A DNA stretch of 64,000 bases. Source: Halodesulfurarchaeum sp. (GTDB lineage Archaea > Halobacteriota > Halobacteria > Halobacteriales > Halobacteriaceae). The DNA lies in assembly GCA_034520565.1 (NCBI GenBank), contig JAXHNL010000002.1, positions 544,001 through 608,000 of the forward strand, in the 5' to 3' direction. This document shows, piece after piece, positions 3,070 through 64,000 of this stretch; position 1 is the stretch's first letter; each line of letters begins with the position of its first letter. The notes under the pieces are model-generated. The model saw only the letters and a program-made list of their open reading frames with translations. It was not told where the DNA came from and searched no databases. The position numbers were made by a program, and so were the translations under genes.

Positions 3070-4248
3070 TCAGGACGACGCCCGGATTTCTCGCTTGTCA
3101 CGCTTCGACGGCCCGCTCCCCAAAAAATCCACGAGCGGCTCGATCACCGTCTCCGGGCGGGCCAGAAACGCGTCGTGGCCGTAGTCGTCGACGATCCGCT
3201 CGAATGTGACACTGGCCCCGGCCGCCTCGAATGCGTCGGCGACCTCGCGCCCCTGTTCGACGGTGAACTGCCAGTCGCCCGTGTAGCTCAGGACCAGTGC
3301 AGAGCCCTCGAAGTCCGTGAGGGCCTCGGCCGGGGAGGCGTGGCCCCTGGAGAACTCGTACTCGTCCATCGCGCGGAGGAGGTAGAGGTAGCTGTTGGCG
3401 TCGAAGCGGTCGGTGAACGTGCTGGCGTTGTAATCGAGGTAGGAGGCCACGTCGCGGTACTCGAAGGCCTCGGCGGTGGGGTCCTCGAGCCCGACGAGCA
3501 TCCGATCGGCGGCCCGGCGCCCGAACCGGTTCTGCATCGAGTCCTTCGAGAGGTACTGCACGTGGCCGATCCGGCGGGCCTGCCCCAGTCCGTCTACGGG
3601 ACCGGGGCCGCCGTAATAGTTCCCGCCCTGGTAGTTCGGGTCCTGGGTGATGGCGCGCCGGGCGATCGAGTCGAGGGCGAGGTTCTGGGTGTCGACCCGG
3701 AACGCCGTCGCGACGGCGACGATCCGTTCGACGCGTTCGGGATACGTGCGGGCCCACTCGAGGGCGTTCATCCCGCCGACACTCCCCCCGACGACCGCGT
3801 AGAGGGTACCGACGTCGAGTTCGTCGAGGAGACGGGCCTGGGCCCGTACCCAGTCGGTGATGGTAACCGGCGGAAAGTCCGGCCCGTAGGGCTCCCCGTC
3901 CGGACCGAACGAGGCCGGACCGGTGGTTCCATAGCAGGAGCCGGGCACGTTCGCGACGATCACGAAGAACTGCTCGGTGTCGATCGCCCGGCCCGGCCCG
4001 ACGACGTCGCTCCACCAGCCGGCGGCCTGACCGTCGATCCCCTCCGGGCCGCTGCCCGTGACGTACTGGCTGCCGGTCAGGGCGTGGGTCACGAGGACTG
4101 GCGGGTTCGACGGGTCTCCGAAGGTCTCGTAGGCAATATCGAGGTCGACCGAGCCACCCCGCTCGAACTCGAAGTGACCGACCGAGACCTGCCTGGTCGG
4201 CGGAACGAGCGGACCGCCCGGATTGGAGGGAAATTGTTCACCTGTCAT
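3070..4248 (-). CDS. metX: Homoserine O-acetyltransferase
   Basis: HALTG, GGSVGG nucleophile, RFDANSY and GHDAFL. Confidence 0.9.
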
Positions 4249-4406
4249 GTCTGGTGTGCATATTCCTCAGCGACTATATTACTGCTATGTAAGTTGGCGC
4301 TTGTAAGTGTTGCTATCCCGGCCCGGTCGTTCCGATCGCGGTGGTTTCGGATCGGACCACCCAGTAGCAAACGTTCACTACCCCGGGCGTCAAACTGTCA
4401 AGGAGT

Positions 4407-5363
4407 ATGGTCAAGTTCCGGCAACTATTCGATTTTACCCCTCGACGGATCGCCGGCGGGTATGCCGTCTCGGGTGCGGCGTGGATAGCGCTGTCGGACC
4501 GAGTGGTCTTTGACCTATTCGGCAGCGCGTCGGCCAGTGTCCTGATACAGACGGTCAAAGGGTGGATCTTCGTCGGCGTTTCCGCGGGGCTTCTCTTCGG
4601 GCTGACCCGCGTTCGAGAGGAACAACTCGAGGCCTCAAAGCGCCGCGCGATCGCCACGGGCCAACAACTCCAGGTCCTCCAGCGGCTCTTTCGCCACAAC
4701 GTCCGTAACGACATGACGGTGGTCCGTGGAAACGTCTCGTTAATCCGGGAGCAGAACGCGGACCCGACGGTCGAGACCTGGTTGGGGGAAATCGAGGAGT
4801 CCACGACCGATCTGCTCGCGATGAGTGAAAAACTGCAGATCCTCAACGACGTCGAGGTCGGCGAGAACCCCGAAAGGGCCGTCGATATCGTGTCGGTAAT
4901 CGAGATGGAAGTAAATCGGTGCCAGGATTCCTATCCCGAGGCAACCATCGAAACTGACCTCCCGGAACAGCGCTCCGTCGAGGCCGACTGGTCGATCCAG
5001 TACGCGATCCGGGAGGCCCTCCAGAATGCGATGGACCATCACAACACACCGGAGGCGGAACGGCACGTCGAGATCACGTGTGCGGAGACGGTGAGCGAGG
5101 TCAGGATCGAAATCGCGGACGACGGCCCGGGAATTCCGGCCGACGAGATCGCCCCGATCGAGTCGGGAACGGAGAGCCCACTGGCCCACGGCAGCGGCGT
5201 CGGCCTCTGGATCATCGCGTGGCTCTGCCAGAGTTTCGACGGATCGATCGATTTCGACGGATCCGATGGCACGACCGTCGGAATGACGTTCACCCGCGCC
5301 GATCCGATCGAACAGGTCACCGGTCGCATCAAACACGAGCTGTACGCGGCACCCGGCGAATAG
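4407..5363 (+). CDS. Membrane sensor histidine kinase (orphan)
   Basis: Two N-terminal TM segments; H-box RHNVRND, N-box NAMDH, DDGPGIP and HGSGVGLW. Confidence 0.85.
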   Translation: MVKFRQLFDFTPRRIAGGYAVSGAAWIALSDRVVFDLFGSASASVLIQTVKGWIFVGVSAGLLFGLTRVREEQLEASKRRAIATGQQLQVLQRLFRHNVRNDMTVVRGNVSLIREQNADPTVETWLGEIEESTTDLLAMSEKLQILNDVEVGENPERAVDIVSVIEMEVNRCQDSYPEATIETDLPEQRSVEADWSIQYAIREALQNAMDHHNTPEAERHVEITCAETVSEVRIEIADDGPGIPADEIAPIESGTESPLAHGSGVGLWIIAWLCQSFDGSIDFDGSDGTTVGMTFTRADPIEQVTGRIKHELYAAPGE

Positions 5364-5419
5364 ATGCGTGACTGCGACGGTCACGGACCGACCCGCCCCC
5401 GGCCGGGTCCCAAACGTAA

Positions 5420-7573
<2,154 letters not shown>

Positions 7574-7667
7574 TCGGACCGCTTGCCTCGGGGTCCCGTC
7601 AGTTGTTGGCCGGTATTACGTCACAAACCGGGTGCATTCAAATGGGGGTCCCACGAAAACTACTCGG

Positions 7668-8264
7668 ATGAGTTGGCAGTCCGACGTCGACCAACTGCTC
7701 TACGCCGGCGAGACGGTCCTCGCCAAGGTCGCGGGCCACGAGGCCGCGATCGCCGTCACGAGCCACCGGGTCCTCGTCTTCACGCCGGGCGTGGAGGGAC
7801 CGAACGTCCAAACCTTCCATCGGCCGAACGTCACCGGCCTGTCCAAACGCGCCAGCGGGTCGGGCCGGTGGCTCAGGGCCGGGGCGAAGTGGCTGGTCCT
7901 CGGAGTCGCCCTCACGATCGTCGGCTCGCTCATCGACCTCGAGGGCGTCCTCGGAAACGTCTCCACGGAAGGGACCGCGGGCGAGGTCGACGTGGGCTGG
8001 ATCGGTGGCCTGTTCGACCTCTTCAGCACGGTTTTCGCCCTCCTCGACGACGTCCTGCTCCTCGGTGGGATCCTCTCCAGTATCGCCGGCTTGGTTTTCG
8101 TCGCCGGGTACCTCAAGAGCCGGGCCTCGGTCGTCACGATCGAGGTGGCCGGGGAGGGGGACGTCGACCTCCCCGCCGCCGGCTTCAGCGACTCCGACGT
8201 CGGGAAACTCGCGGACGCCATCGACCCCACTGTAGCGGTCGATTCAAAGCCGTCGAGCCGGTAG
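7668..8264 (+). CDS. Conserved hypothetical membrane protein
   Basis: ATG 7668; two hydrophobic segments; haloarchaeal codon usage; ends 7 nt before uvrC. Confidence 0.7.
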
Positions 8265-57181: not shown

Positions 57182-58917
57182 AGCTGCTCGAAGGCCAGCT
57201 CGCCGTCCCGGAGCGCGGCGAGTGTTTCGGGCAGGCCCTCGATCCCCACGCGAACCTGCTCGGTCGTGTCCCGGTCCCGCACCGTGACCGTCCCGGTCTC
57301 GAGACTCTCGTAGTCGACGGTGACACAGAACGGGGTGCCGATCTCGTCCTGGCGCCGGTACCGCCGGCCGATCGCCCCCGAATCGTCGTAGGTGACCGCG
57401 AGGCCCGCTTCTCGCAACTCCTCGGCCAGGTCCCGAGCCCGTTCGCCCAGGCCGTCCTTGTCCATGAGCGGGAAGACCCCGATGAGGGTGGGCGCCATCT
57501 CCGGAGGCAGGCGGAGTACGGTGCGCTCCTCGCCGTCGATCTCGTCCTCGTCGTAGGCGTGGACCAGGACCGCGTAGACCGCCCGGTCGATCCCCATCGA
57601 GGGCTCGATCACGTGCGGGGTGATGTGTTCCCCCCGCTCGGTGACTTCTTCGACGGCGAACCCGGTCTGCTCGACCGGAATTTCGACGGTTTCCTCCTCG
57701 AGGTCGACGCTGACGCCCTCCCCGTCGAACACCGCGGGATCGCTCTCGGCCAGCTCCTCGAGGGACGCGGCGATGTCGGCCGCCTGGGAACCGAACTCCG
57801 GCCCCAGTGCGGCCATGTCCGGGTCGACGGTGGCCCGCTCCCCGGTTCGTGGCTCGTCGTACTCCCTGAAAACCTGGTAGCGCTCGCCGGTGTGGGCCTC
57901 GTGGTGGCTGAGGTCGTAGGTGCCCCGGTTGGCGATCCCGGCGAGTTCGATCCACTCCGGTTCCGTTCCCGGTGCGCTCACGTCGGCCTCCGCGTCCCAG
58001 CAGTCACGGGCGTAGTGGGCCCGCTCGGCCGGCTGGTGCTGCCGGAACCGCAGGCGGCCGAGGTCGACCCCGATCCGGTCGTACCACTCGGTGGCGATGC
58101 CGACGTAATACCCGACCCAGGCGTCCTCGATCGGCCCCGTTTCGACGGCCTCGCCGATCGACTGGAAGCTCGGATCGCCGTCTTCCTGCTGGACCGCGGC
58201 GCTGTAGAGCGGGGCCTCGACGTCGGCGACCCGCTCCAGATCCGGCTCGTCCGAGTCGGGGTCGAAGAAGAGCTCGAGTTCGGCCTGGTTGAACTCCCGG
58301 GTCCGGACGATGGCGTTTCGCGGACTGATCTCGTTGCGGTAGGCCCGGCCGATCTGGGCCACGCCGAAGGGCAATTCGCCACGGGCGTACTCCCGGAGCC
58401 GCGGGAAGTCCACGAAGATGCCCTGGGCGGTCTCCGGTCGGAGGTAGCCCCGGTTACTCGAGCCGGGCCCGATCGCGGTCTCGAACATCAGGTTGAACTC
58501 CTCGACCGGCTCGTCGGCGAGTGCCGCTCCACAGCTCGGGCAGGTGATCCCGTGCTCGGCAAGGAGCGATTCGATCTCCGCGGGCGAGAAGGTCTCGGCC
58601 TCGGTGATGTCGGTCTGCCCCTCGACGAGGTGGTCGGCTCGATGGCTCTGTTCGCAGTCCGGGCACTCGACCAGCAGGTCGTCGAAGCCGTCGAGGTGGC
58701 CCGAAGCCGCAAAGACCGCCTCTGGGAGGATCGTCGGGGCGTCGATCTCGTCGTGCCCTTCCCGGGTCGCCCATCGCTCGCGCCAGCTTCCCTCGATCTT
58801 GGCCTTGAGCGTCGCGCCGTGAGGACCGTAGGTGTAAAAGCCCGAGACGCCGCCGTATGACGAACCGGTCTGGAAGAAAAACCCGCGGCGCTTGGCCAGT
58901 TCGGTCAGCTCCCTCAT
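57178..58917 (-). CDS. glyS: Glycine-tRNA ligase (alpha2 type)
   Basis: AKRRGF, LRPETAQG, RNEISPR, EPSMGIDR and RYRRQDEIGTP. Confidence 0.96.
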   Translation of the reverse strand: MRELTELAKRRGFFFQTGSSYGGVSGFYTYGPHGATLKAKIEGSWRERWATREGHDEIDAPTILPEAVFAASGHLDGFDDLLVECPDCEQSHRADHLVEGQTDITEAETFSPAEIESLLAEHGITCPSCGAALADEPVEEFNLMFETAIGPGSSNRGYLRPETAQGIFVDFPRLREYARGELPFGVAQIGRAYRNEISPRNAIVRTREFNQAELELFFDPDSDEPDLERVADVEAPLYSAAVQQEDGDPSFQSIGEAVETGPIEDAWVGYYVGIATEWYDRIGVDLGRLRFRQHQPAERAHYARDCWDAEADVSAPGTEPEWIELAGIANRGTYDLSHHEAHTGERYQVFREYDEPRTGERATVDPDMAALGPEFGSQAADIAASLEELAESDPAVFDGEGVSVDLEEETVEIPVEQTGFAVEEVTERGEHITPHVIEPSMGIDRAVYAVLVHAYDEDEIDGEERTVLRLPPEMAPTLIGVFPLMDKDGLGERARDLAEELREAGLAVTYDDSGAIGRRYRRQDEIGTPFCVTVDYESLETGTVTVRDRDTTEQVRVGIEGLPETLAALRDGELAFEQL

Positions 58918-59762
58918 AGGCCCCGGAGCAGGTCGACGTCCCGGACGATGCCGACGAGTTCGTCCCCGCGCTTGAGTGGCACCTGCTCGATGTCGTTGTC
59001 GAGGAGGAGTCCGGCGACCTCCCTGGCGGTCCGTCCACCGGTGACGGTCACGAGCGAACTCGACATGTACTCCCGGACCGGTTCGTTGGGGAACTCGACG
59101 TCCCGGGTCGGGAGATAGCGGTTGCCGACCGCCTTGATCCCCTCCCACATCCAGTCGTCGTCCTGGTCGGCGATGCTCTCGCCGGTGGCGTCCTCGCCCT
59201 CGACGACCCGCGCAACGTCGATGATGTCGACCTCGGTGATGATGCCGGCCATTTCGCCGTCGTCGTCGAGTGCGATCGCGTAGGGCACGTTTGCAAAGGC
59301 GATCTCCCGCTCGGCGACGGTCAGGGGGGTACCGACGTAGACCGTGTTGACGTCGTGACTCGCGAGCCCCCCGACCTCGCGTTCCCCGTCGGCGTCGCCG
59401 TCCGCGATGGCCCTGACGACGTCCGTCACCGTGATCATCCCGGTCAGGCCGCCGCCGTTGACGACCGGAACCCGCCGTTCGCCGGTCTCGACGATGAGTT
59501 CGGCCACTTCGTGGAGCGTGGCGTCACTCGTCGTCGTGGTGACGTCCTCCATGAGAATGGCCAGCTGGTCCTCGTTCGGTCTGGCGATCAGGCTCTCGCG
59601 GGAGACGAGCCCGCGGTACTGCTCGCCGTCGTCGGTTTCTTTGACGACCGGGACCGAGGAGAAGGATCGCTCCTGCAGGTACTCGAGGACGTCGTCACGG
59701 GTTCCGGGGAGCGAAACCGTGACCACGTCGGCCCGCGGCGTCATCGCGTCGGCAACCTTCAT
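58914..59762 (-). CDS. CBS-domain protein
   Basis: Four CBS repeats; coupled to glyS. Confidence 0.9.
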   Translation of the reverse strand: MKVADAMTPRADVVTVSLPGTRDDVLEYLQERSFSSVPVVKETDDGEQYRGLVSRESLIARPNEDQLAILMEDVTTTTSDATLHEVAELIVETGERRVPVVNGGGLTGMITVTDVVRAIADGDADGEREVGGLASHDVNTVYVGTPLTVAEREIAFANVPYAIALDDDGEMAGIITEVDIIDVARVVEGEDATGESIADQDDDWMWEGIKAVGNRYLPTRDVEFPNEPVREYMSSSLVTVTGGRTAREVAGLLLDNDIEQVPLKRGDELVGIVRDVDLLRGL

Positions 59763-59939
59763 GTGAGCGGCTTACAGGGTCCTTGCATATGTAGGCTACG
59801 ACAGCGAGTGGCGGAAATCTGCCACGGAACTCCCGACGATGCGAATGGTTCGACCCTTCCCGGCAAGGGGCGGGCTCCGGGCCTTGTGGGAAATCTTTCA
59901 CCAATTTTTATAACGCTTCACAATATTGGTCCTGTTGGT

Positions 59940-61775
59940 ATGGCAAATAGCCACAAACTTAACAGGCGCCGTTTTCTCGAAGCCACCGGGGCTGCAGCCC
60001 TCACCGCCAGTATGGCAGGCTGTGCGGGGGATGGGGACGGCGACGGGGAAGAGACGACGACCGAAACGGGTGACGGGGAGTATACGCCCTCGGAGACCTA
60101 TCCGTACGGGGCAAACGAGACCAACGTCGAGGAAGCACAGGCCGTGATGGAGGAGGCCGGGTACGGGCCGGACAACCGGTTCGAACTCGACTGGCTCCAG
60201 TACCAGAGCCCGGCCTGGGAGGAGATGGCCAACACCATTCGCTCCCGGCTGGACTCGGCGTACATCGACATGAACATCAGCGACGCCGACTTCGGAGCGT
60301 TGCTGAATCAGACCGAGCAGGGCAATCACATGGCCTATACGCTGGGTTGGATCGCCGACTACCCGGCACCGCAGAACTTCCTGCAGCTCATCGACCCGGA
60401 GAACACGATCTACGACGCCGAAGGCTATACGCCGAACGGCTCGCGGCTCTTCTGGTCGGAGGACGCACACGGCGATGACCGCATCCGGGAGTACATGACC
60501 GCCCAGTTCGACCGGATCCAGGACAACCCACAGACAACCGACGAAGCTCAAGAGATTCGGAACGACGCGGCCGTCAAAATGGAGCGGGCACTGTGGGATT
60601 CAGCTGGCCTGCTGCCGATCTATCACCGGGTCGACCAGCTCTTCTGGTATGACCACGTCGACTTCGACCCGCCCGGCGGAATGGGCCCATCGCGCGCAAA
60701 AGCGAACACCCATACGAGAGGTCTCGAAGGAAAGGACACGCTGAACGGTATCTCGGCCACGTTTAACTCACTCGACCCGATCGCGTCCGGGAACACGGCA
60801 AGTGGCGGCAAGGTGATGGACATGTTCGACGCCCCGTTCAATTACCACAACGGGACGACGGAGGTCCGCAACCTGCTTGTCGAGGATTATTCGGTCAGCG
60901 AGGACGCGAGGGAGTTCGAGTTCAACCTCAAGGAGGGCGTGCAGTTCCACGGAGATTACGGTGAGGTCACCGCGGACGACATGGTGTACTCGATCCGGCG
61001 GCTCGTGGAATCGCCCAACTCCACGAACACCTACTTCCCATTGAGCGTGCTGGCCATCGACCACGAGACGGACGAGGACGGGAACGTCGTTCCGGACAGC
61101 ACCGCCGTCGAGAAGACCGGCGATTACTCGTTCAGTATCACGCTCCAGGAGCCGTTTGCCTACACGTTCTCGGTCCTGGCCTATTCGGCCTTCTCGGTCG
61201 TTCCGGAGGGTATCGTCGGGGACGTCGAGGGCTACGACGGCGAGATGGAGTGGCAGGAGTTCTCCACGAACCCGGTCGGCTGTGGCCCCTTCGAGTTCGA
61301 GAACTGGGAGTCCGGGACTGGCGGGGAGTTCAGCGCGACCACGTTCGAGGACTACCACGGTCCCGCTCCCGTTATGGACCGGCTCCACGACTCGATCATC
61401 ACCGAACCGTCGGCGATTTACAACTACTTCATCAACGAAAACGCCGACGTGTCCGGGATTCCGACCTCGCAGTACGACCCCGAGTTGATGACCATCGAGA
61501 GCGAGGAAGACGGCCAAGAACTCGGAACCTACGGCCCGATCGGTGATGGCAAGACGGTCAACATGTCCGCGACCCCGTCGATCAACACCTTCTTCGTCGG
61601 ATTCAACATGGAGAAGGTGCCAAAGGCGGTTCGCCAGGCGATGGCCTACGTCATCAACCACGAACAGTTCATCACGAACGTCTTCAAGGAACGCGGTGCG
61701 GGCGCGTTCCACCTGACCCCACCACAGGCGTATCCGGGTGGCGCGGACGGGTACTACGAGAACGTCCCCGAATAA
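59940..61775 (+). CDS. dppA: Peptide ABC transporter substrate-binding Tat lipoprotein (family 5), apparently circularly permuted
   Basis: NRRRFL Tat motif and MAGC lipobox; SBP-5 motifs LDP, LKEGVQFH, VGCGPF, VRQAMAY, EAGY and GWIADY, but in non-canonical order. Confidence 0.88.
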   Translation: MANSHKLNRRRFLEATGAAALTASMAGCAGDGDGDGEETTTETGDGEYTPSETYPYGANETNVEEAQAVMEEAGYGPDNRFELDWLQYQSPAWEEMANTIRSRLDSAYIDMNISDADFGALLNQTEQGNHMAYTLGWIADYPAPQNFLQLIDPENTIYDAEGYTPNGSRLFWSEDAHGDDRIREYMTAQFDRIQDNPQTTDEAQEIRNDAAVKMERALWDSAGLLPIYHRVDQLFWYDHVDFDPPGGMGPSRAKANTHTRGLEGKDTLNGISATFNSLDPIASGNTASGGKVMDMFDAPFNYHNGTTEVRNLLVEDYSVSEDAREFEFNLKEGVQFHGDYGEVTADDMVYSIRRLVESPNSTNTYFPLSVLAIDHETDEDGNVVPDSTAVEKTGDYSFSITLQEPFAYTFSVLAYSAFSVVPEGIVGDVEGYDGEMEWQEFSTNPVGCGPFEFENWESGTGGEFSATTFEDYHGPAPVMDRLHDSIITEPSAIYNYFINENADVSGIPTSQYDPELMTIESEEDGQELGTYGPIGDGKTVNMSATPSINTFFVGFNMEKVPKAVRQAMAYVINHEQFITNVFKERGAGAFHLTPPQAYPGGADGYYENVPE

Positions 61776-62094
61776 GGAAGACGCGAACATTTCGATAGGG
61801 ACACTCCGAGATCTCGCTTTCGTTTCGCCGAACCACGTGCCCCTTCGTGTGGCGTAATCTACTTAACTGATCCAAAAAGATAATCGGTGTCAAGATATGC
61901 CCCGTCAGGTCTCTCGCCCTTCGAACGGCCCCGCCGGGGTCGTTTGGTCCTGCCGTTCTCGGAAGACGATATCGCGTCTCGGGTCTGTGGGACGGAATCG
62001 ACCCGAACGCGAAGCGAATCGTGGACGCCGTCGCTTCGACCTGGCCGTCGGTACGGCGGCAGATCGCCCGCTTTTCCTGCTGTAACCTGAATGC

Positions 62095-63186
62095 ATGAAT
62101 CGCCTCATCTACCTCTTCAAACGTCTCGGGCTCGGCGTTCCGGTCATGCTGTTCGGGCTCACCATCGCCTTCATGGTGATGTATCTGGGCCCGATCGATC
62201 CGGTGTTGACGATTCTGGGCCGTGACGCCGAGCCGATGGCCGCCCGACAGCTGCGAATTCAGCTCGGCATCATCTATCCGAACGGGGACCCGGTTCCGCT
62301 CTGGGACCAGTACCGGATCGTTCTCACCGATCTGTTCACGTTCAACTTCGGTCAGTCCTGGACGATGCAACGGGGCACGTCGGTCGGTCACCTCATCATC
62401 AGGCGCATGCCCGCGACGATCTGGATGGGCTTCTGGTCGGTCGTCATCGCCCTGCTCTTCGGGATCCCGATCGGGCTGTTCGCCGGCCTGCGCTCGAATA
62501 CCTGGTCGGATTACATCTCCTCGGGCTTCGGGATCATCTGGCGGGCGATGCCGAACTTCTGGCTCGCCGTAATGCTGGCGGGTCTCCTCTCGGCTGGTGG
62601 TGCCTTGAGCGCCTACCGGGATTGGTGGATACAGACCGACGTGATCGGGACGCCTGACGCGGTATACCACCTGTTCTCTGCGGTGCACCTCTTCGACGGT
62701 ATCCCCCTGCTGGAGGCGTTGTGGCTGCCCATTCCCAACATCGATCCGATGTTGACCTCCTTCAAGTGGATCCTCCCTGCGGCGTTGGTGCTCGGCTCGG
62801 CGTCGATGGGTAACGAGATCCGTATCGGTCGGACCGCCGTGCTCGAGAGCATCAATTCGAAGTACGTCGAGACCGCCCGGGCGAAGGGACTCTCCGAACG
62901 TCGAATCATCGGCAAACACGTGGGTCGGAACGCTGTCGTCCCGCTCCTTCCGGTCATCATGGGCGAATTTTACCTGCTGATCGGGGGCTCGGTTCTCGTC
63001 GAAAAGGTCTTCTCGATCAACGGGCTGGGGAACATGTTCTTGCGGTCGGTTCTCGGCCCGGACATCCCGCTCGTGATGGCACTCGTGTTCTTTTTCATCA
63101 TCTTCCAGATCCTCTTTAACATCACACAGGACCTGCTATACACGTTCATCGACCCCCGAATCACCCTGGAGGCTGCAGAGAGGTAA
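62095..63186 (+). CDS. dppB: Peptide ABC transporter permease
   Basis: FNFGQSW, MPNFWLA, YVETARAKGLSE and VEKVF. Confidence 0.92.
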   Translation: MNRLIYLFKRLGLGVPVMLFGLTIAFMVMYLGPIDPVLTILGRDAEPMAARQLRIQLGIIYPNGDPVPLWDQYRIVLTDLFTFNFGQSWTMQRGTSVGHLIIRRMPATIWMGFWSVVIALLFGIPIGLFAGLRSNTWSDYISSGFGIIWRAMPNFWLAVMLAGLLSAGGALSAYRDWWIQTDVIGTPDAVYHLFSAVHLFDGIPLLEALWLPIPNIDPMLTSFKWILPAALVLGSASMGNEIRIGRTAVLESINSKYVETARAKGLSERRIIGKHVGRNAVVPLLPVIMGEFYLLIGGSVLVEKVFSINGLGNMFLRSVLGPDIPLVMALVFFFIIFQILFNITQDLLYTFIDPRITLEAAER

Positions 63187-63188
63187 CG

Positions 63189-64000
63189 ATGGTCGAGGAA
63201 GACATCTCCACGACGCGTGCGGAACTGACCGCCACGGACAAACCGTCCCTTCGCGAGCGTTTCGCGGAGAACCCGGATCCTGCGCTTCGGTGGGGGGCGG
63301 TGATGGCGCTGTTGCTGCTCGTCGAGATCTTCACCTTTGCGGAAATTGCGGTCACGCTCGTCCAGGCCGCAGTCGTCGCGACGACCGGACTCATCGACGT
63401 CGTCGTGGGCCTGGTTTCGCCGGCCGCCGCGGGCGCTGTCGTGGACGTGCAACTTGTCATCACGGGCTTTCTCGACGGCATCAGGGCCTTCTTCGAGCAA
63501 CTCCCGACGCTGCTCGGTCGCGAGGTCATTCCGAACCAGGGGTACCAGACCGGCCCGGACGGCCCGTGGGTCGGCACGTTCCTCGGTCTCGAACCGGCGA
63601 TCGCCTGGGCGATCCGGTTCACCCTGCTGGTCGCCTACTCCCTCTTTTTCGCCTACTGGGCCTTTCAGGGGTGGGTCGTTTTCAAGGAACACTACCGCCA
63701 TGCCGGCTGGACCCCGACCGACGACATGGTCCGTCGGCTCGACGGGCATCGCTGGGGACAGTTCGGCATCCTCGTTCTCGTCCTGTTCCTCATGATGGCG
63801 ACCTTCGGCCCGGCATTGGGGCCCACCACGGTGGAGCAGAACATCCAGAGTCCCTACAGCCACGAGGTGAAGTACTTCGACGCGGAAACCGGCGAGGTCC
63901 AGACGATCACGGCGGGAGAAGCAAACTTCGAATCCAAGTCGAAAGGGACGGTCGACCAGAACGTCGGGCCGATGGAGTACGACGAGTATAGCCGGTTCCA
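63189..64000 (+). CDS. dppC: Peptide ABC transporter permease, N-terminal part (runs off the window)
   Basis: Hand translation from ATG 63189 (MVEEDISTT...HRWGQFG...GPMEYDEYSRF) is open to the window end; multi-TM; follows dppB. Confidence 0.8.
   Translation, partial: MVEEDISTTRAELTATDKPSLRERFAENPDPALRWGAVMALLLLVEIFTFAEIAVTLVQAAVVATTGLIDVVVGLVSPAAAGAVVDVQLVITGFLDGIRAFFEQLPTLLGREVIPNQGYQTGPDGPWVGTFLGLEPAIAWAIRFTLLVAYSLFFAYWAFQGWVVFKEHYRHAGWTPTDDMVRRLDGHRWGQFGILVLVLFLMMATFGPALGPTTVEQNIQSPYSHEVKYFDAETGEVQTITAGEANFESKSKGTVDQNVGPMEYDEYSRF

Follow-up and report, generated by a model that had tools for sequence, protein, structure and literature searches.

Natural circular permutations are rare, and several rotations among close relatives with the same genomic context are rarer still. 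Among the binding proteins of ATP-binding cassette (ABC) transporters, TpMglB-2 (Tp0684) of Treponema pallidum has been described as a circularly permuted cluster-B glucose-binding lipoprotein, labelled 'Type Ic/Cluster Bc', and its authors speculated on a link between permutation and tethering (PMC4990184). Within cluster C, or family 5, the nearest characterised proteins are Escherichia coli DppA and binding proteins of the OppA type (1DPP/1DPE, 8Z1Y, 2Z23 and 1OLA). This report concerns a family-5 lipoprotein gene in a 64,000-nucleotide stretch of DNA from Halodesulfurarchaeum sp. (GenBank assembly GCA_034520565.1, contig JAXHNL010000002.1, positions 544,001 to 608,000 of the forward strand), hereafter the window. 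Combining profile searches, structure prediction and a survey of haloarchaeal relatives, it makes a strong case that the body of the encoded protein, P0001, is a natural circular permutant of the cluster-C fold, and that the protein is a functional tethered receptor of a Dpp/Opp-type importer.

P0001 shares with DppA and OppA the Pfam family, the fold of residues 257-611 and the ligand-binding aspartate, as well as an operon with two BPD_transp_1 permeases and two oligo_HPY ATPases. It differs from them in that it is rotated, with its old termini fused and its lipid tether attached through an acidic linker, and in that the equivalent of DppA R383 is unaligned. The canonical haloarchaeal proteins P0093-P0119 (Haloferax, Haloarchaeobius and Halorussus) are closer still, being 43-52 % identical in both blocks and having the same predicted twin-arginine translocation (Tat) signal, lipobox, linker and operon; unlike P0001, they keep the N-terminal part ahead of the C-terminal third, and the window clade is nested among them. 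The relatives of C and D type defined below, together with P0277, share with P0001 the fold, the fused old termini and the N-terminal anchor, plus the operon in the haloarchaeal cases, but differ in the loop that is broken. Likeness to TpMglB-2 is one of the kind of event only: both are lipid-tethered natural permutants among ABC-transporter binding proteins, and TpMglB-2 still binds its ligand, but P0001 does not have the MglB-like cluster-B fold, whereas TpMglB-2 belongs to the MglB-like sugar-binding family of cluster B, and its description (PMC4990184) gives a single permutation and no series of break points. P0001 is a new topological variant within a well-known family, and it takes its place in a series of rotations that occurs naturally. 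A full-text literature search, made mostly without subscription journals or supplements, found no description of a permuted family-5 protein, and an earlier description is possible.

The order of the blocks carries most of the argument. SBP_bac_5 (PF00496) is the sole Pfam family found in P0001, where it scores 179.2 bits against a cut-off of 32.4 and matches in two stretches; in the genome profile search, profile positions 2-260 fall at window 60864-61760 (E 9.6e-40, 135.8 bits), and positions 240-361 fall upstream, at 60039-60395 (E 4.5e-13, 48.7 bits). In phmmer searches of the PDB, the stretch of E. coli DppA at 20-315 is matched by residues 282-598 of P0001, and that at 328-417 by residues 63-149. 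Block 1, which holds YPYG, the ligand-Asp motif GWIADYP and LPIYHR, is the canonical C-terminal third, and it is followed by block 2, the canonical N-terminal two-thirds (Table 1). Comparison with canonical haloarchaeal relatives gives two high-scoring segment pairs in swapped order (with P0093, for instance, P0001 residues 271-603 on P0093 residues 70-400, and 45-259 on 401-609), and residues 44-259 correspond to the C-terminal 200 residues of canonical relatives. The N-to-C block order canonical for family 5 is absent from P0001. With its blocks swapped, its old termini joined and the whole fold present exactly once, with neither overlap nor gap between the blocks, P0001 has every mark of a natural permutant, and the swapped order makes it a topological variant of family 5 rather than a non-member. 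The first-pass annotation, made from the letters of the window, had already read the gene as a clean circular permutation on the strength of its motifs, all of which are found in the proposed order within one open frame. Its expectation of a swapped pair of matches in BLAST against canonical haloarchaeal relatives was borne out, P0093 being an example, and the collinear alignment to canonical family-5 proteins that it had named as a refutation was given by none of them; Pfam, phmmer, VIA-align and the canonical matches agree on the swapped blocks, and the arrangement is conserved and under purifying selection.

Both junctions fit this course of the chain. Since the loop ...PGGAEQYTSHAEESYPYG... 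runs unbroken in canonical relatives, P0001, whose C-terminus reads ...PGGADGYYENVPE and whose folded part begins ...ETYPYG, stops exactly where YPYG would follow, the break sitting between PPxxYPGG...Y and YPYG. Where the old termini meet, the former C-terminal tail (..GGMGPSRAKANTHTR) leads through the turn GLEGK, of 4-5 residues, into the old mature N-terminus (DTLNGISATFNSLDP), and in the AlphaFold2 model strands 259-262 and 267-272 are adjacent at this joint, with a predicted local distance difference test (pLDDT) score around 90. The old termini are evidently side by side in the canonical fold, such that closure needed almost no linker. Ahead of the block homologous to DppA 325 onward there now stand the signal, the lipobox and the linker, and, because the chain starts at the equivalent of DppA ~325, the tether lies on the C-lobe side of the fold and not on the N-lobe side. 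Thus, three further proposals of the first-pass annotation are upheld, namely that the new C-terminus ends at the normal position of YPYG (from the canonical loop and the ends of P0001), that the old termini are fused in one frame (from the canonical tails and N-termini and the two adjacent predicted strands) and that the lipid anchor has been relocated. That the moved anchor alters docking on the permeases is speculation. The N-terminus itself, RRRFLEATGAAALTASMAGC, was read by eye as a twin-arginine motif followed by hydrophobic residues and the cysteine of a lipobox; the Pfam TAT_signal profile gives 14.8 bits against a cut-off of 22.7, and the predicted Tat signal is read by eye from RRRFL and AGC. 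The tether that follows is 35 % D/E and 52 % T/S/G, and residues 1-45, with pLDDT < 50, are the sole disordered part of the model.

The AlphaFold2 model of P0001, built from an alignment with 55 collinear homologues, is a single confident fold, with a mean pLDDT of 86.4 and a predicted template modelling (pTM) score of 0.84. Residues 257-611 superpose on OppA/DppA 1 to about 335 with Z 23-26; by VIA-align, model residues 266-611 match 1dpp_A 1-324 (Z 23.1, root-mean-square deviation 3.1, 301 aligned), and 257-611 match OppA 2z23_A 1-335 (Z 25.8). Every structural match is a cluster-C protein. Residues 151-170 are the least confident of the folded body (pLDDT 76 and 64). Two structural results speak less well for a permuted cluster-C body: the sequential aligners Foldseek and VIA-align covered block 2 only, leaving block 1 unaligned, and block 1 modelled alone (residues 46-262, 39-row alignment) reached only a pLDDT of 52.6 and a pTM of 0.41, such that the structural equivalence of block 1 rests on sequence and on the whole-protein model. 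The poor model of the isolated block would fit a non-autonomous domain, without proof.

The window arrangement is one of several, a point absent from the first-pass annotation, as became apparent from the mapping of 283 collected proteins onto the A-type alignment profile. With the blocks named N1 (residues 271-378), N2 (379-611) and Cx (44-260), the canonical order, B, is N1-N2-Cx, and the window order, A, is Cx-N1-N2; order C is N2-Cx-N1, with its break at residue 378 (residues 379-605 first, then 43-377), and order D opens with the final ~70 residues of Cx, continues with N1-N2 and closes with what is left of Cx, with a break at about residues 173-189. The 283 proteins comprise 92 A, 102 B, 21 C and 8 D forms and 60 that are unclassified, mostly fragments; for proteins covering at least 80 % of the profile, the numbers are 87 A, 59 B, 18 C, 8 D and 3 unclassified. 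Order A occurs in Halobacterium salinarum, Haloquadratum walsbyi, Halorubrum, Halolamina, Halosimplex, Halorhabdus, Halapricum and others, order C in Haloglomus, Halodesulfurarchaeum and Halobacterium hubeiense, and order D in Natrinema, Natronococcus, Halovenus and Halapricum. The break points of the rotations coincide with predicted loops, that of order D lying in or by the least confident loop of the body. The module of signal, lipobox and low-complexity linker is kept across all four orders; a simple pattern for the Tat/lipobox module finds it in 75 of 87 A, 41 of 59 B, 17 of 18 C and 5 of 8 D full-length proteins. Median linker lengths show no clear difference (A 35, B 33, C 28 and D 49 residues), and the idea that a longer tether compensates for rotation is, given these similar medians, unsupported.

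A fifth break point, preceding the VRQA-type motif, is found in P0277, a more distant protein from metagenome-assembled genomes of Methanofastidiosia (in a cluster of 5 members), whose two swapped blocks are 80 % and 79 % identical to those of canonical P0210. Both proteins have an identical type of N-terminal signal/lipobox and of C-terminal membrane anchor, with both end modules unchanged; this rotation is recent and one of the body only, between two fixed end modules. The N-terminal lipobox signal of P0277 and P0210 accompanies a C-terminal hydrophobic anchor with a basic tail, features from which it may be surmised that the Methanofastidiosia binding protein is membrane-held at both ends.

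The genomic setting is shared across the series. Species-representative haloarchaeal genomes yielded 79 loci, of which 38 have order A, 32 order B, three order C and four order D, two being cut by contig ends; a full permease-permease-ATPase-ATPase set lies downstream in 35/38 A, 24/32 B, 3/3 C and 3/4 D loci. When 301 genomes were sampled evenly across the class Halobacteria, a full-length collinear match to P0001 was present, among the matches listed, in 22, including the window's own, and the C pattern in one; the D signature (a match from residue 175-204 across the fused termini to about 608) was present in at least 24. The source genome itself holds a single gene of the window's clade, plus two distant canonical family-5 genes elsewhere.

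The number of permutation events was assessed with trees on a permutation-aware alignment from which the break-point columns had been removed (FastTree, 172 rows; IQ-TREE with a mixture model, 82 rows and 474 columns). Both trees need at least 10 order changes, and in both the A-type proteins form a single clade within the canonical haloarchaeal ones, orders C and D being scattered. Approximately unbiased (AU) tests reject a single clade for all C (difference in log likelihood 808) and for C1 plus C2 (398), for all D (300) and for D_P0168 plus the main D clade (235), as well as order A without its nested C forms (286) and all permuted forms together (532). The scars at the junctions bear on the same question. 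C1, from Haloglomus, is nested inside the A clade, and its internal joint reads as an A-type C-terminal tail, ..HWQG, then 7-16 residues like the end of an A-type linker, ..DFDGLSG, then YPY; a second A-type scar is its old-termini turn, SLEGDTLNG. The joint of C2 is canonical-looking, and the junction of D_P0168 is similar to the ends of P0169, the canonical protein closest to it. The trees, the AU tests and the scars together point to at least five well-supported independent events, which by this sequence evidence would be the change from B to A, the change from A to C1, the main D clade (within which another switch, to C, took place), D_P0168 and the Methanofastidiosia case; two or three further events are likely.

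Not all of these results favour so high a count. The AU tests were run on 41 rows under LG+G4 with fast constrained searches, and a single clade of A plus C2, i.e. one common fusion, was rejected only moderately (p-AU 0.003-0.02). The C groups break in one common loop, junction lengths are alike across groups, many genomes contain several paralogues, and the AU tests leave unrejected a grouping of P0123 with C2 (p-AU 0.20) and one of the main D clade with P0153 to the exclusion of canonical P0133 (p-AU 0.17), a pattern that would also suit one or two old permutations followed by gene conversion or recombination among co-resident paralogues, which scattered C and D with no recurrence. That history is nonetheless improbable given the rejected groupings of all C, C1 plus C2, all D, and D_P0168 with the main D clade. 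Additionally, the A-type tail and the linker remnant of the C1 joint are contiguous in no donor gene, and so conversion cannot create that joint; the D_P0168 junction is like the termini of canonical P0169, and the Methanofastidiosia case is separate, recent and at a different break point. Paralogue recombination stays a partial rival to the event count. Whether archaeal family-5 proteins are a hot spot of repeated permutation, at a few permissive loops behind a fixed anchor module, including the path from canonical to A to C, and selected by the position of the tether relative to the permease-docking face, is a tentative idea that we would at present sooner doubt than assert.

Far less probable is that the gene is a decaying remnant, in which the 3' end of one binding-protein gene became fused to the 5' part of the next, with a product that is non-functional or has a non-receptor role. 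Formally, such a fusion is the initial product of the duplication route considered below, but comparison with four orthologues puts dN/dS (nonsynonymous to synonymous substitution rates) at 0.08-0.21, with low values in either block (approximate ratios, given a dS close to 1), and mean column identity is 57 % across 55 sequences, with the fold and ligand motifs invariant. Neither the complete and non-overlapping fold, confidently modelled as one unit, nor the conserved operon that the gene leads in 35 of 38 loci suits a remnant either. A reading of the locus as two genes was also rejected.

The first-pass annotation had allowed for misassembly at the junctions. Short contigs from a pair of public runs, made from a single sample that may be the source sample, reach across the start of the gene, its old-termini junction and its end, differing at 0-1 places; X1 record 3 (60656-60977) and X2 record 11 (60501-60779) span the old-termini junction with 0 differences, and a diverged relative from another study, X4 record 27 (60477-60839), spans it as well. 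An assembly or binning artefact that misordered two pieces of a canonical gene can be set aside, for, while the assembly is one of two contigs scored as 80.7 % complete and the bridging DNA may be from its own source sample, the A order recurs at 38 of the 79 loci, which come from independent genomes, some of them of isolates whose chromosomes are complete, and in the collinear matches of the 301-genome sample, and the junction is bridged by the X1 and X2 contigs and by the diverged X4 relative. The source assembly, of 1.86 Mb, may belong to a small-genome lineage whose completeness marker sets underestimate.

As a working model, a circularly permuted P0001 would be secreted and tethered by its twin-arginine signal, lipobox Cys28 and 23-residue acidic linker, and its chain would then run from the equivalent of DppA ~325 to the old C-terminus, through a short hairpin to the old mature N-terminus, and on to the equivalent of DppA ~324. 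Judging from the family, the operon and the conservation, the protein would trap its ligand in the cleft between the lobes, by the Venus-flytrap mechanism usual for such receptors, and hand it to the downstream permeases. D140, in GWIADYP, is invariant in 55 sequences and aligned with DppA D436, which together with R383 (precursor numbering) is described in PMC12136057 as forming salt bridges with the termini of the bound dipeptide. Because the equivalent of D436 is invariant, a peptide-like molecule with a free amino group is somewhat favoured as the ligand. Peptide binding is compatible with this alignment, but P0001 has a gap at the place of DppA R383, which leaves a dipeptide preference unsupported, and other family-5 proteins bind non-peptide ligands, e.g. 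opines and sialic acid (from PDB titles).

For the origin of the rotations, duplication of the mature region followed by trimming is the likely route. An in-frame tandem duplication would give signal-linker-body-body, and trimming the first copy from its front and the second from its back could then produce any rotation, set by the trim positions; in archaeal relatives the process would have been repeated, giving at least four haloarchaeal orders and a fifth break elsewhere. This route fits because a partial linker lies inside C1 and because the Methanofastidiosia end modules are fixed. A point on the other side is that scoring 7994 candidate proteins of 1071-3055 aa turned up no tandem-duplicate intermediate, which is weak evidence.

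The family offers a test of the duplication-and-trimming model through scars that are still readable, and its rotations supply naturally validated break points in a scaffold that engineers permute for biosensors. The series also lets one ask if the place at which a lipid tether is attached affects delivery to an ABC transporter, a question put by the TpMglB-2 authors for another cluster of binding proteins, and, were the hot-spot idea true, the operon would be a natural experiment on the origin of permutations and on tether geometry in an ABC importer. There is, moreover, a consequence for annotation. Orders A and C appear in Pfam as split or partial domain matches, and order D is unseen, since the moved piece lies outside the domain model; domain-based pipelines may therefore misjudge permuted genes as fragments.

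Table 1. Features of the binding-protein gene and its operon (window positions unless stated otherwise)
Feature	Position	Strand	Description	Basis
A/T-rich TTTTTATAA	59905..59913	+	27-35 nt 5' of the ATG	Read directly
Circularly permuted SBP family-5 lipoprotein gene	59940..61775	+	P0001, 611 aa	Open frame; SBP_bac_5, E 1.7e-52
Signal peptide	59940..60023	+	Twin-arginine RRRF (59964-59975), lipobox MAGC (60012-60023), Cys28 (60021-60023)	Motif reading
Tether	60024..60092	+	Acidic, Thr/Gly-rich, low complexity, 23 residues	Predicted disordered
Block 1	60093..60725	+	Residues 52-262; canonical C-terminal third (DppA about 325-507)	phmmer, Pfam, relatives
YPYG	60099-60110	+		
GWIADYP	60345-60365	+		
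Long surface loop	60411..60479	+	Residues 158-180	D-type relatives break in or just past it
LPIYHR	60612-60629	+		
Fusion of old termini, THTRGLEGKDTLNGIS	60708..60755	+	Residues 257-272; C-terminal strand, short turn, N-terminal strand	Comparison with canonical tails
GLEGKDTL	60720-60743	+		
Block 2	60726..61772	+	Residues 263-611; canonical N-terminal two-thirds (DppA 1-324)	phmmer, VIA-align, Pfam
NSLDP	60765-60779	+		
LKEGVQFH	60927-60950	+		
Loop HETDEDGNVVPDS	61062..61100	+	Residues 375-387	Break point of C-type relatives
VGCGPF	61275-61292	+		
VRQAMAY	61629-61649	+		
PPQAYPGG	61719-61742	+		
DppB/OppB-type permease gene	62095..63186	+	Same operon	BPD_transp_1, E 5.3e-34
DppC/OppC-type permease gene	63189..64000	+	Runs past the window end	BPD_transp_1
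DppC/OppC-type permease gene and the two ATPase genes after it (numbering of genome locus L007)	4189-5736, 5733-6797, 6794-8122			

The start of the gene at the ATG of 59940 is backed by collinear homologues that begin at the same Met, and translation of the 611-residue frame gives no internal stop before the stop codon at 61773-61775. A longer open reading frame was listed from 59355 because an upstream stop codon is missing there, the homologues starting at the 59940 Met. The A/T-rich TTTTTATAA upstream is presumably, from general knowledge of haloarchaeal promoters, a possible archaeal TATA box. An Rfam search of 59700-62150 gave zero matches. Directly 5' of the binding-protein gene, and divergent from it, is a gene for a protein with four CBS domains (58914-59762, minus strand).

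Downstream, the two permease genes are followed in the genome by two ATPase genes (ABC_tran plus oligo_HPY). The gap between the binding-protein gene and the first permease gene is unusually long, at 319 nt (61776-62094), and might set the ratio of receptor to permease expression. A short GC hairpin with a T-run, in this gap at 62055-62068, is the one terminator-like site of a bacterial-type promoter/terminator scan, compared with 2.0 expected by chance, and is no evidence of termination.

Several relatives have features of their own. In Haloquadratum walsbyi (loci L021, 974-6865, and L043, 2284-6675), the A-type operon is immediately preceded, on the same strand, by another complete operon of Dpp-like type; the binding protein of this other operon has an A-type profile match and could not be placed in any of the four orders. 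P0152/P0270 of Halapricum salinum (965 aa) has a D-type permuted binding domain at about 423-959, behind a 420-residue N-terminal part that matches Pkinase at 24.6 bits, under the cut-off of 31.7, and the UniRef name of P0152/P0270 is that of a kinase-domain protein; going by these matches, it may be a Ser/Thr kinase with a permuted binding protein as its sensor. A 975-aa open frame in genome G198 has the same signature. Finally, P0142 (866 aa) is a family-5 protein of canonical order with C-terminal plastocyanin/azurin-type copper-binding and cupredoxin-like domains.

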